From IMG/VR virus record IMGVR_UViG_2917408641_000001: a stretch of DNA of 15,816 nt; one strand, written 5' to 3'. The DNA comes from a virus (taxonomy: Duplodnaviria > Heunggongvirae > Uroviricota > Caudoviricetes). Made by a program: the position numbers and the translations under genes. Positions 1,162-15,816 of this stretch are shown one piece after another. Every line of letters begins with the position of its first letter. Position 1 is the stretch's first letter. Under the pieces are notes generated by a model. The model was not told the DNA's origin. It did not search any database and saw nothing but the letters and a program-made list of their open reading frames with translations.

Positions 1162-1182
1162 GAGTGTCCACGCAGTGACCAC
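1162..1182. repeat. Left copy of boundary direct repeat (candidate att core), GAGTGTCCACGCAGTGaCCAC
   Basis: Matches 15786..15806 at 20 of 21 positions with 16 contiguous. Lies at the transition from flk-flanking sequence to AT-rich acquired DNA. Confidence 0.55.
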
Positions 1183-1202
1183 ATTTTCGAGAGGTGGCGA
1201 AC

Positions 1203-1231
1203 GCCCGCAATATTGCGGGCTTTGTTTTATT
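1203..1231 (+). terminator. Rho-independent terminator-like hairpin
   Basis: Stem GCCCGC / GCGGGC (1203..1208 and 1215..1220) around loop AATATT, followed by TTTGTTTTATT. Confidence 0.5.
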
Positions 1232-1379
1232 AAAAATTCCTTATCCGATTCTTCATCATTAGAGTGATTGCAATACGATGTATTTCTGTGAAAGGTTGCG
1301 GTAAGGATGCAGATTAGTAGTCTTAATGTCTGTTGCTATCTCATTGTATCTATTTATCCTGGATATGATTAATGTTGCT

Positions 1380-1467
1380 ATGGTTTGGGAACAGCCCAGC
1401 CCAGGCCATGTTCTTTCACCGTGGTAGTTTGCTTACAATGCGGACATTTTAGATTAACCTGAGTCAT
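1380..1467 (-). pseudogene. Truncated IS1 InsA-like zinc-ribbon fragment (29 codons)
   Basis: Minus-strand ORF MTQVNLKCPHCKQTTTVKEHGLGWAVPKP, then stop. It parallels the N-terminus of the InsA in this window (MVTVNLHCPRCQSVQVYRHGKN) but ends after the first CxxC pair. Confidence 0.3.
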
Positions 1468-1785
1468 CAGAATCCCTTCGATAAAAACGGGGAGTATATC
1501 TGATGATCTCCAGTTTGAATATATGGCCAGAAAATCTCATGAAAAAATGTCAATAAATATAACCACATATGGAGCCTTCATCGTAAAAACGCCAAATGCA
1601 TCAATGCCTTTCAAGATATATCAAGGTGGTGGAGTAAAGAAGGTAGTTTTTAAAAGCCAAGTAATCATGAATGTCTTATATATTACACAGATTGTTTTTC
1701 ATGAAGTAAAGGGCTTGTTGCATAGGGCAGATGTTACTTGAATTACAATAAGCCCCTGAAATTTCTTATAAAAACATATCTGTAA

Positions 1786-3198
1786 TTATTTTAAGTCATT
1801 TTCCTTTTGGATTCTTTCTGAGGCATATTTTAAAACCTCAGGTTTTTTACTAATTGCCTCGGATACGATGTTATCATTATCACGTAATCTTTCTGAGGCA
1901 TATTGGAGTGTGGTTGCATCCTGTTGTATTGCGTGACGAATAATTTCTTCATTATCAGTTAGTGATTTAGGGAAGTTCTTAAGACAGACAGGGGAAAAAG
2001 CTATTATTTGCTTAGCAAGCGATAAGTTTTTTTCTAGTTGATCCTCTATATAGAATATAGCATCACTGTCATTCATCAAAGCACGACTTACAATGCTGAA
2101 ATCGTTTTTCAACCGCTCAGAAGCATAATACAATACACGGGCATCCTTGATAACGTTGGAGTAAATAAAATCGTAGTTATCTAGCTCTGATGTTGGCACG
2201 TATTCTCCAATACCGCCGACATTCATTTTAATGTTATTAATGTTATAATCACCATCTTTTATAAATATGTGCCTTGGAACTTTTAGTTCAGGACGATAAA
2301 TACCATTAATAATACTATTGAAAGAGTCGTTGTCATTAGCAGACAACAAATTATCCTGGTCTTTCAATGGTAATTCGCGGAATTTTTTAATTAATGATAG
2401 AGCAAGGCCTGTTTTAAAATCTTTTACCAGAAACATATTTTCTTTTAATGAGAGTTCCTTAAATGACAAGATGTTGTGTGCTTCTTCACTTATATTACTG
2501 ATATGGTTTTTTGTGTTTCCAGTTTCACTAAATATTTGTTCCTGAAGACTAATCCATGACACTTGAGAGAAAACTGGCATATTAAAATTTATGGCATACA
2601 TGGTTTTACCGAAGCGACTGCTCTTTTTTAATCCCCCTGTTCCTGGCTCTATAGCAAAAAAAATAAAATCATCATTACCCAGTGTTTTTATATCTGGACT
2701 GGCTGCATGAGATCCCCAAGGCAAGGCTGTATTGCGTTCTTCCAGTTTTTTCTTTGAAAATAAGGTTAATGTGTTTTTTTGATTTATAATATTACCATTC
2801 GTAGCATGTGTTGCTGTAAATCCTAATCTGGAAATTCTATCAAAAAATACTATTTCTTTTTCACTTAATGGTGCAAGCTCTTTAGATAACATACTTATAT
2901 TTTCTGATGATATTTTTTGCATGGTAGCAAACCCCTTTGCATTATTAATGCTTTCTTTCCAAATCTCCCCTTCAGAAAACATATGCGCATACGATTTATC
3001 AGAAATCATTTTTCTGAAATTCTTTGTTATAATATTAGAAGCCTGTTCTTTATTTAGAAGGCGAGTTTTCTTTGCTGGAATTTGCTCATTGGTATTTACA
3101 ACTCTTTTAGCTGGAATGCTTTTTTGCTGGGTGGTTGTACTTGGTTCTGTTGCATTACTTTGGGTGAGAGGAGCGACATAATTACCTGTTACTTTCAT
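1786..3198 (-). CDS. Hypothetical 470-aa protein, AT-rich, C-terminal tandem YASERL-type repeats; function unknown
   Basis: Long uninterrupted ORF in strongly AT-rich DNA; ATG at 3198 preceded by AAAGGTG. The C-terminal third carries three copies of a repeat with core YASER (YYASERLKND, LQYASERLRDND, LKYASERIQKEND). No catalytic motif recognised by eye. Confidence 0.75.
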   Translation of the reverse strand: MKVTGNYVAPLTQSNATEPSTTTQQKSIPAKRVVNTNEQIPAKKTRLLNKEQASNIITKNFRKMISDKSYAHMFSEGEIWKESINNAKGFATMQKISSENISMLSKELAPLSEKEIVFFDRISRLGFTATHATNGNIINQKNTLTLFSKKKLEERNTALPWGSHAASPDIKTLGNDDFIFFAIEPGTGGLKKSSRFGKTMYAINFNMPVFSQVSWISLQEQIFSETGNTKNHISNISEEAHNILSFKELSLKENMFLVKDFKTGLALSLIKKFRELPLKDQDNLLSANDNDSFNSIINGIYRPELKVPRHIFIKDGDYNINNIKMNVGGIGEYVPTSELDNYDFIYSNVIKDARVLYYASERLKNDFSIVSRALMNDSDAIFYIEDQLEKNLSLAKQIIAFSPVCLKNFPKSLTDNEEIIRHAIQQDATTLQYASERLRDNDNIVSEAISKKPEVLKYASERIQKENDLK

Positions 3199-13980: not shown

Positions 13981-13986
13981 TTATGA

Positions 13987-14274
13987 CTAAAGCCCCAGCC
14001 ACAACAACCATGCATCGCGGCGTTCTTTCGGTTGCTCAAAAAACGCTTTGCGCATGCCTTCGTTAAATGCTGGCAGATATACCCAGTTTTCTGATGCACG
14101 CGTCTTTACTGAACCTGGTTTCACAAAGTCAATTGTCGGTAGCTTTGCTGCGTCAATCATGGTTCTGACTGTGGATTCCTTGCGGCCGATCATCTTGGCG
14201 AATAGTTGATATGGCACCGCTTCAAGTGGATATGGTGCTACCTGAATGAAGCCCCCAAGCTCTGATTCGCTCAT
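13987..14274 (-). CDS. cox: Cox-like excisionase / early-promoter regulator (P2 Cox family), 95 aa
   Basis: Segments PYQLFAKMIG, WVYLPAFNEG and RDAWLLWLGL parallel P2 Cox as recalled. Divergent from the C-like repressor; AGGGAG RBS. Confidence 0.75.
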   Translation of the reverse strand: MSESELGGFIQVAPYPLEAVPYQLFAKMIGRKESTVRTMIDAAKLPTIDFVKPGSVKTRASENWVYLPAFNEGMRKAFFEQPKERRDAWLLWLGL

Positions 14275-14387
14275 TGTGGTAATCTCCCTAATTCGTTCGA
14301 ATGGCTCAAAATGGCTTATATCGGCTTATTTGAGTGTTTTTATGTTTGTGCCCGATGTGGCATGTTGTGATGGAGGATATGCCCGAT
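14275..14387. promoter_or_regulatory. Lysogeny/lysis switch region between cox and C (opposing promoters and operators)
   Basis: 113-bp gap between divergently arranged cox-like and C-like genes. Direct repeats GCCCGATGTGGCATG (14350..14364) and GCCCGATATGGCATC (14381..14395) straddle its right edge, running into the C start codon. Confidence 0.5.
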
Positions 14388-14708
14388 ATGGCATCTTTAT
14401 CAAGCATGGGTGAAAAATTTCGCCTGATTCGTGAAGCAGAAGGTATGACCCGCCAGGAGTTTGCGGATTGTGTTGGGTTGCCTTATGGGACGGTAACTAA
14501 CTATGAGGTGAGGGGGAAGCAAGTAACAGAGGGTGCCTTACTTAAGGTTACGAAACACCCTAAATTTAAGAAATATGCTTATTGGTTATCAACAGATGAA
14601 ACGATGCCGGAGGTTGGGCAAATTTCTCCGGCTCTCTCTCTTGATGGTTCCTGCAATTCGGAGGGAGATCGTGTTTCAACCGAAACAATCCAAAAATTAT
14701 CCCGCTGA
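14388..14708 (+). CDS. P2 C-type immunity repressor (HTH), about 106 aa
   Basis: Segments QEFADCVGLPYGTVTNYE and KYAYWLS...GQISPALS parallel P2 C as recalled. Start at MASLSS is a choice among several in-frame ATGs. Confidence 0.75.
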   Translation: MASLSSMGEKFRLIREAEGMTRQEFADCVGLPYGTVTNYEVRGKQVTEGALLKVTKHPKFKKYAYWLSTDETMPEVGQISPALSLDGSCNSEGDRVSTETIQKLSR

Positions 14709-14804
14709 GGCCAGAAAACTGGTTAGACCTGCTTTTTGTCTGGTCTGATTATTGCTGGAAAGAGGCTGGAGAAATTGTAGAGCGGTTCATTGGAGGGCTT
14801 CGCA

Positions 14805-15816
14805 ATGTCGATTAAGAAGCTCGAAGATGGTCGTTATTTGCTGGACATCAGGCCGAACGGACGCAAGGGAAAGCGCGTGCGTAAGGTATTTGACAAAAAA
14901 TCGGTAGCGGTGGCCACTGAACGCTACATCATGGCGAACGCTGAAAAGCGGGAATATATACAGGGCTACCGTGATCGTCGAACGCTAAATGATTTGCTTG
15001 AGTTGTGGTGGATGTATCACGGCCAGCACAGGCGTAAGGCGTAAGGCGGAAGAAGACCGAAAACAACTGCGCAACATAATCAATGAGCTTGGCGCTGATA
15101 TGCAGGCTGTGGATCTTGATAAGCTAAAAATTATCGCGTGGCGTTCTCAAAAGATAGCTGATGGATTGAAACCGTCATCTGCTAACAGATACATGAATCG
15201 GTTATCCGGAATGTTTACCGTACTGAAGAAAATAGGCCTCTGGGATGCAGAACATCCGGTAAGGGGAATTTCTATTCTTTATGTATCTCCACGAGAAATG
15301 GCTTTCCTGTCCCAGAAGGAAGTGGCGTTATTGCTCGATACACTGGAGGGCGATTACTGGCGTGTTGCGCTTTTGTGTTTAAGCACAGGGGCGCGCTGGA
15401 GTGAAGCCTGTAAGCTTCGTGGTGAACAGATAGTTCATAACCGTGTAACGTTTCTTGAAACCAAAAATGGCCGAAAGAGAACAGTGCCAATTTCGCAGGC
15501 AGTTTGTGAGGCGATCAAAACCAGAGAAACAGGCGGCTTGTTTGAGGTGAAGTACCGGGAATTCTGCTTGGCGCTGAAAAGAGTTAAGCCCGATTTGCCA
15601 AAAGGCCAGGCTGCACATGTGCTGTGGCATACGTTCGCCAGCCATTTTGTGATGAACGGAGGAAACATTATTGCGCTTCAGAAGATTCTTGGCCACGCAA
15701 CCATTCAGCAAACAATGGCATATGCACATTTTGCACCGGATTACCTGCAGGATGCGGTGGCCCTTAATCCGCTGAAAGGTGGCGTGAGTGTCCACGCAGT
15801 GTCCACGGGGGATTAA
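14805..15816 (+). pseudogene. int: P2-family tyrosine integrase, frameshifted by a 7-bp tandem duplication
   Basis: N-terminal part (MSIKKLEDGRYLLDIRPNGR...) and catalytic part (...TGARWSEA..., LGHATIQQTMAYAHF) fall in two frames. GGCGTAA is tandemly duplicated at 15031..15044, and removing one copy restores a single frame. The Arg of the HxxR box is Trp (TGG at 15625..15627). GGAGG lies 7 nt before the ATG. Confidence 0.85.
15786..15806. repeat. Right copy of boundary direct repeat (candidate att core), GAGTGTCCACGCAGTGtCCAC
   Basis: 20/21 match to 1162..1182. Overlaps the last codons of int. Confidence 0.55.

Follow-up and report, generated by a model that had tools for sequence, protein, structure and literature searches.

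The integrase (Int) of phage P2 has arm-type sites with the consensus tgTGGaCa (PMC3448106), and the GenBank record of P2 places such sites on both sides of the core of the phage attachment site (attP). The feature 'Int P arm' (24293-24320) adjoins the ogr terminator and is separated from the core by an IHF site, while 'Int P' arm' (24470-24496) overlaps the 3' end of int, for which the end of the coding sequence is given as 24462, and Cox sites lie between this arm and the core. Integration within the pdxB 5' end, with a TTG start codon supplied by the phage, has been described experimentally for the Citrobacter phage PhiSM, whose attP in pdxB was determined as ATCCTTGTTGATGAAAA (PMC6456863). 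Heterobivalent integrase sites of the P2 type, phages of the P88/PhiSM kind that integrate in pdxB, and prophage decay driven by insertion sequences (IS) are all already described. The DNA analyzed here is a stretch of 15,816 bp, IMG/VR virus record IMGVR_UViG_2917408641_000001, which we refer to as the window. Sequence comparison shows it to be identical to Escherichia marmotae HT073016 (record CP025979.1; the species is named as E. marmotae in PMC6650469), and it begins at the flk stop codon (minus strand) and ends at position 15816 with that of a P2-type integrase gene. We propose with high confidence that the window represents a decayed, immobile P88-like prophage in the 5' end of pdxB of HT073016, and that the 21-bp direct repeats near its two ends are the arm-type sites of its P2-type integrase.

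The 21-bp pair is the longest direct repeat within the window. The left copy is GAGTGTCCACGCAGTGACCAC at 1162-1182 and the right copy is GAGTGTCCACGCAGTGTCCAC at 15786-15806; 20 of the 21 positions are identical, 16 of them contiguous, and the right copy ends 10 bp ahead of the int stop codon (15814-15816). The repeat is real and chance is refuted as its origin, in that 300 dinucleotide-preserving shuffles of the window yielded no pair of 21-mers with one mismatch or fewer, and the pattern GTGTCCACNNNGTGWCCAC is found twice against an expectation of 0.01. A first-pass annotation, made from the letters of the window, had already described the repeat as exceeding chance and as overlapping the 3' end of the integrase gene, and in both respects it was right. 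Un-integrated phage genomes also hold both copies, about 270 bp apart, with a core between them and one copy in the last codons of int. In the order repeat, core, repeat, they are found at 17026-17044, 17238-17256 and 17303-17321 in phage Chuche and at 10001-10019, 10212-10230 and 10277-10295 in P88_4B11. Neither copy is present in the unoccupied host site (attB) of eight empty E. marmotae loci, which have 99 bp between pdxB and flk. As the empty sites lack the repeat and the free phages carry it twice, it cannot result from integration.

The boundaries of the element were located by a four-way comparison of the left prophage junction (attL, in the window), the right junction (attR, in the CP025979 flank), attB (the eight E. 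marmotae loci) and attP (Chuche and P88_4B11). The sole block common to all four is AAAATCCTTGTTGATGAAA, a 19-bp core that corresponds to pdxB codons 2-7 and includes 16 of the 17 bases of the PhiSM attP. Its attL copy at 1099-1117 (plus strand) is the true left boundary, and its attR copy falls outside the window at the equivalent of 15999-16017, 183 bp past the window end. Measured between the cores, the element thus has a length of 14,900 bp, and it extends 183-201 bp beyond the window. Relative to the 21-bp repeats, the left boundary is displaced by 63 bp to the left, with a gap of about 44-45 bp between the core and the left copy, and the attR junction lies about 192-193 bp to the right of the right copy. 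The DNA on the host side of the attL core consists of the flk-pdxB intergenic region (997-1095) and the orphaned native GTG start codon of pdxB (1096-1098), and it equals the empty-site attB up to the core.

The consequences for pdxB are those already reported for PhiSM. PhiSM (Shae_phiSM, from Citrobacter rodentium), P88, P88_4B11, PhiR44_2 and Chuche all use the pdxB 5'-end site and provide a phage TTG start (PMC6456863), and the element in the window likewise has its core at the pdxB 5' end and rebuilds the gene from a phage start codon. At attL, the orphaned GTG and six pdxB codons remain (1096-1117). At attR, AAGGAGCCTTAGATTGTCAGAGACTGAAAAAGGGTTA precedes the core and pdxB (CP025979 flank 4155-4179, minus strand), and the phage DNA gives pdxB an AAGGAG, a 7-bp spacer, and a TTG start with seven further codons; the protein is called at 385 residues in the occupied attR versus 378 in the empty sites. 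Integration would have removed the native promoter and start codon of pdxB, and the last ~180 bp of phage DNA, comprising the P' arm spacer, the Shine-Dalgarno sequence and the TTG start, would now be needed for vitamin B6 synthesis.

With a separate core in place, the repeats take on the positions of the Int arm sites of P2. Each 21-mer is made up of two octamers (GTGTCCAC/GTGACCAC) at a spacing of 11 bp, about one helical turn, and its opposite strand reads GTGGACAC/GTGGTCAC twice, 11 bp apart, which fits the P2 arm-site consensus. The predicted P-arm sites, GTGTCCAC at 1164-1171 and GTGACCAC at 1175-1182 (within 1162-1182, plus strand), are the counterpart of 'Int P arm' in P2. The predicted P'-arm sites (15786-15806, plus strand), in which GTGTCCAC occurs twice 11 bp apart in the last codons of int, are the counterpart of 'Int P' arm'. 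In the attP of the free phages, the core is separated by 192 bp from the P' pair in the 3' end of int and by 44 bp from the P pair on its other side, so both sets flank a distinct core at positions equivalent to the mapped P2 sites. Because integration at the core splits the arms, recombination would leave one octamer pair just inside each end of the prophage, which is where the repeats are found.

The likeness to P2 extends to the details of the arms. Both phages have two direct octamer repeats per arm of nearly the same sequence; those of P2 are GAGTGTCCACACAGTGTCCAC for P', which is one base off the int copy in the window, and ACGTCCACACATTGACCAC for P. In both, the P' pair is inside the last int codons, the P pair is beside a rho-independent terminator, and the stretch from the P arm to the core contains an IHF consensus. 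In the window, a terminator-like hairpin with a T run (1203-1230, plus strand) adjoins the P arm, and homology to relatives on the attL side stops there. The IHF site is a consensus match only (TATCAATAAATTA at 1130-1142, minus strand); the 15.8 kb contain just one other, and this consensus can also be read in Chuche and P88_4B11. By analogy with P2, dimers of Int would bind arm and core sites together and, with IHF and Cox, would build the complex for integration or excision. The two systems differ in core sequence and host target, which here is the pdxB 5' end, and the core-to-P' spacer of the present element also bears the Shine-Dalgarno sequence and the TTG codon with which pdxB is rebuilt. 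The P'-arm octamers encode the C-terminal Int peptide SVHAVST, for which P2 has SVHTVST (P2 locus 471-497), and the same bases therefore double as protein code and as a putative binding site of the encoded protein. A perfect 8-bp inverted repeat (TGATATAA at 1138-1145, a 6-bp gap, and TTATATCA at 1152-1159) also lies between the IHF consensus and the P arm, and it is present in Chuche and P88_4B11 as well. A scan of viral contigs for the arm motif returned at least 120 stretches, often at contig ends.

Two other explanations of the repeats have to be considered. According to the first-pass annotation, they are the core duplication of attL and attR that delimits the prophage at 1162 and 15806, with the left copy marking the switch from flk-flanking to AT-rich DNA; in its favor are the position of the direct repeats near both ends, the overlap of one of them with the 3' end of int, and a match far better than chance. 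We give this practically no credence, as it is refuted by the empty-site and free-phage comparisons. Unoccupied sites on the flk side, which that annotation had proposed to search for a single repeat copy, do exist, yet they contain no copy at all and their junction is at 1099-1117 rather than 1162-1182, the outcome that the annotation itself had named as a refutation. The DNA between 1099 and 1161 is phage DNA by homology, and the change from host to phage hence precedes the left copy. Moreover, the phage genomes carry both copies before integration, and it is a different sequence, the 19-bp core, that attB, attP, attL and attR share, in agreement with PMC6456863. It is likewise exceedingly improbable that the repeat is functionless, either as a chance match or as a remnant of a duplication of the 3' end of int. 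One copy is coding, and its conservation could reflect the protein alone, but in P2, Chuche, P88_4B11, E. coli SCU-152 and E. marmotae CP099351 the non-coding copy still has both of its octamers 11 bp apart, even though the flanking bases differ. The similarity between the two copies is confined to the 21 bp, the P2 record marks both as Int binding sites, and none of the 300 shuffles gave a match.

For those who annotate prophages, the lesson from the arm-site assignment is that the most conspicuous terminal direct repeat in a P2-type prophage marks the arm sites of the integrase and not the att core. When used as a boundary, the repeat misplaces the ends, in the present case by 63 bp on the left and by about 200 bp on the right, and an annotation drawn in this way also misses that the phage occupies and rebuilds the pdxB 5' end.

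Judged by its genes, the element is a prophage of the genus Xuanwuvirus (Peduoviridae), the P88-like branch of the P2 family. The region 6586-15816 has about 95% DNA identity (range 95-98%) to the P88-like phages PhiR44_2 and P88_4B11 and to many E. coli prophages, and 11045-15816 is 98% identical to P88_4B11. Protein identities to P88_4B11 are 94-100%, save for the replication endonuclease A (80%) and StbB (54%). The gene order of the element is stbB, parM, A, early genes, cox, C and int, and the early region is syntenic with that of the Xuanwuvirus phages PhiSM, P88, P88_4B11, PhiR44_2 and Chuche at 91-98% DNA identity; the first-pass description of the order int, C, cox, early genes and A as P2-like is confirmed. 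In intact relatives, the circular order is int, attP, variable cargo, hok, ogr, D, tail, lysis, capsid, terminase, portal, variable cargo, stbB, parM and A. Unlike these phages, the copy in the window has no ogr, tail, lysis, capsid or packaging genes, and it has two IS elements, different cargo on the attP side (DUF4116), and lesions in int and A. In E. coli SCU-152, the flk-pdxB interval is occupied by an intact 36-kb prophage of the P88-like kind in the same orientation, and an intact prophage is present at the same site in E. marmotae CP099351, where it was seen at the attL end only. The otherwise complete SCU-152 prophage has a replication endonuclease gene annotated as frameshifted (locus 29982-32823) and a shortened gene D, and P88-like prophages that seem to be of full length may often be defective.

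The loss of the late genes can be traced to a single joint. Homology to intact relatives ends at 4981, the end of the hok locus, and returns at 6586 inside stbB. Exactly at this joint is an IS3-family element of 1244 bp (4982-6225, plus strand; terminal repeats TGATC[T/C]TACCCAC...), which connects hok directly to the stbB side. The hok locus, which lies between attP and ogr in intact phages, is thus the last phage DNA before the joint. The terminal repeats of the IS3 element are identical at 30 of 40 positions, and its 3-bp flanks differ (TCA versus TGG) with no target duplication. Compared with SCU-152, about 25 kb are missing, and none of 26 SCU-152 late proteins, from ogr through portal, had a tblastn match in the window; of three proteins of the attP-side cargo that were run alongside (methyltransferase, Com and Hok), Hok alone was matched. 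The IS3-family element would therefore have replaced some 25 kb extending from ogr through portal. The cos site was presumably lost with it, a view that comes from the lack of homology in the window to the part of the P88_4B11 record that follows stbB and closes the record; the P2 cos, used as a query, matched neither the window nor an intact E. coli prophage and is uninformative. The proposal that the stretch holds a P2-family prophage remnant beside flk without late genes is accordingly well founded, given the 0 of 26 late proteins and the 95-98% identity to P88-like phages, and the comparison with intact P2-like phages that had been recommended to map the deletion places it at the hok-IS3-stbB joint. 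Without a complete set of late genes, the element is a remnant and not a phage.

The genes for the integrase and the replication endonuclease are also damaged. The int gene (14805-15816, plus strand) is a pseudogene by DNA alignment and tblastn, with a 7-bp tandem duplication of AGGCGTA (15030-15036 and 15037-15043) that shifts the frame and a change of the arginine of the catalytic HxxR motif to tryptophan (CGG to TGG, 15625-15627); the arginine is kept in P88_4B11, Chuche and SCU-152. The replication endonuclease gene A (7829-10705, minus strand) is a pseudogene or truncated, with in-frame premature stops at 10436-10438 and 7883-7885 when compared with the 940-residue P88_4B11 protein. Only a single contig on record has the exact A protein, and for this reason the layout of the remnant looks strain-specific. 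The element is dead and its machinery no longer works, because int is frameshifted and has lost its catalytic arginine, A carries premature stops, and about 25 kb have given way to the IS3 element.

The retained genes could also be taken as those of a working satellite-like or plasmid-like element of 14.9 kb, with int, C, cox, A and parMR and no late genes, that is mobilized by a helper phage. Both att cores, the four arm octamers, and intact C, cox, parM/stbB and hok are kept, and a co-resident P88-like phage could in principle excise such an element in trans. We nevertheless regard this as very unlikely. A P4-like satellite or a phage-inducible chromosomal island (PICI) would be recognized by functional int and replication genes and by a recurring layout free of late genes, but here int is frameshifted and mutated in a catalytic residue, A has two premature stops, and the single contig with the exact A protein points to one strain rather than to a spreading family. 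In addition, an IS element that lacks a target duplication forms the joint, nothing homologous to the end of the P88_4B11 record beyond stbB is left, and the DNA that is retained is 95-98% identical to that of full-length phages. The interpretation as a decayed P88-like prophage with its arm sites at the two ends is therefore preferred, although several observations weigh against it. The binding of Int to the 21-mers is deduced from P2 by homology of sequence and position. The core-to-P' spacer is 192 bp in this element versus about 87 bp in P2. The octamer by itself is not diagnostic, since GTGTCCAC is also present in both terminal inverted repeats of the IS3 element (5000-5007 and 6200-6207), where it is unrelated to the Int sites and raises the octamer count in the window to 7 versus the 0.7 expected. 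Finally, the missing target duplication of the IS3 element would fit a neighboring deletion mediated by the IS as well as recombination between two IS copies, and it proves neither.

The decayed prophage resembles the cryptic E. coli prophages CP4-57, e14 and CPS-53, which are likewise integrase-proximal remnants locked in place by IS insertions, deletions and pseudogenes and which have kept regulatory and toxin-antitoxin genes. The HT073016 remnant differs from these in being recent, with DNA that is still 95-98% identical to that of live phages and an A protein that is found on one contig only. The dependence of pdxB on phage DNA, together with hok and the repressor C, could explain why the int/C/cox end has survived while the late region was lost. 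Since neither the two cores nor any of the four arm octamers is damaged, excision of the remnant in trans is conceivable. However, we consider it rather doubtful that selection to keep the int-proximal end has shaped the decay and that a superinfecting P88-like phage might excise what is left.

The host gene at the left end of the window is flk (1-996, minus strand; 331 residues, PF27202 Flk_N). Over the flk region, identity is 99.9% to E. marmotae loci encoding the same Flk protein, 94% to the E. ruysiae type strain, and 85% to E. coli. Among 5426 complete E. coli genomes, 78 show an unbroken alignment from flk through the core and on through the P arm (window 2-1230), and on this basis a P88-like prophage is estimated to occupy the flk-pdxB site in about 1.4% of them.

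Between the terminator-like hairpin and the hok locus is a variable cargo slot next to attP (1231-4584), which in relatives contains com and a DNA methyltransferase gene or other genes. In the window, it contains an open reading frame (ORF) of 72 residues (1523-1741, plus strand), the gene for a DUF4116 protein of 470 residues (1786-3198, minus strand), an IS1 element and a DUF4875 fragment. No function was assigned to the DUF4116 protein by PADLOC or PHROGs, and in the 3' end of its gene a 17-nt sequence recurs exactly, as a direct repeat, at a distance of 75 bp (1813-1829 and 1888-1904). The divergent IS1-family element (3532-4297, plus strand; InsA/InsB) lacks a 9-bp duplication of its target (TCTAAAGTT versus AAATGGACT). 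By its insertion the DUF4875 gene is truncated; its last 68 codons remain as a C-terminal fragment (4310-4516, plus strand) and the 5' part is gone. The absence of this 5' part beside an IS1 element that lacks a target duplication makes a second IS-associated deletion at this point probable. The adjacent hok/mok toxin locus (4585-4981, minus strand; hok coding sequence 4712-4849, PF01848) encodes a Hok protein 98% identical to that of P88_4B11. Sequence of the hok/mok locus also occurs in many Stx-converting phages at about 82% identity, and no match to the sok RNA at or above the Rfam gathering threshold was found at the locus.

On the other side of the joint, the partition-module segment of P88-like phages (6226-7749) contains, by homology, stbB (6471-6785, minus strand) and parM (6790-7749, minus strand; 99% to P88_4B11), together with a 58-residue ORF (6223-6399, minus strand), the 5' end of which overlaps the end of the IS3 element. 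The early operon (10675-13980, minus strand) was recognized by homology to P88_4B11 and includes genes for proteins of 129 residues, 205 residues (Ash-like), 99 residues and 81 residues (MarR-like), DUF4754 and DUF4761 proteins, and others. Its products are 94-100% identical to those of P88_4B11, except for the 129-residue ORF, which has no P88_4B11 counterpart. The excisionase and Pc repressor gene cox (13987-14274, minus strand) and the immunity repressor gene C (14406-14708, plus strand) each encode proteins 100% identical to those of P88_4B11. Within the early operon, Rfam matches above the gathering score were obtained for C4 antisense RNA (11424-11511, 80 bits) and isrK (11547-11621, 64 bits), both on the minus strand, in a region with DNA 98% identical to P88_4B11. 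This region resembles an immI-style module of P1, with control of an antirepressor by an antisense RNA, set into a P2-like phage. The C4 and isrK matches overlap the 205-residue ORF with the Ash-like N-terminus, and the neighboring gene encodes a 76-residue protein of the 'Derepression' family (11137-11367).

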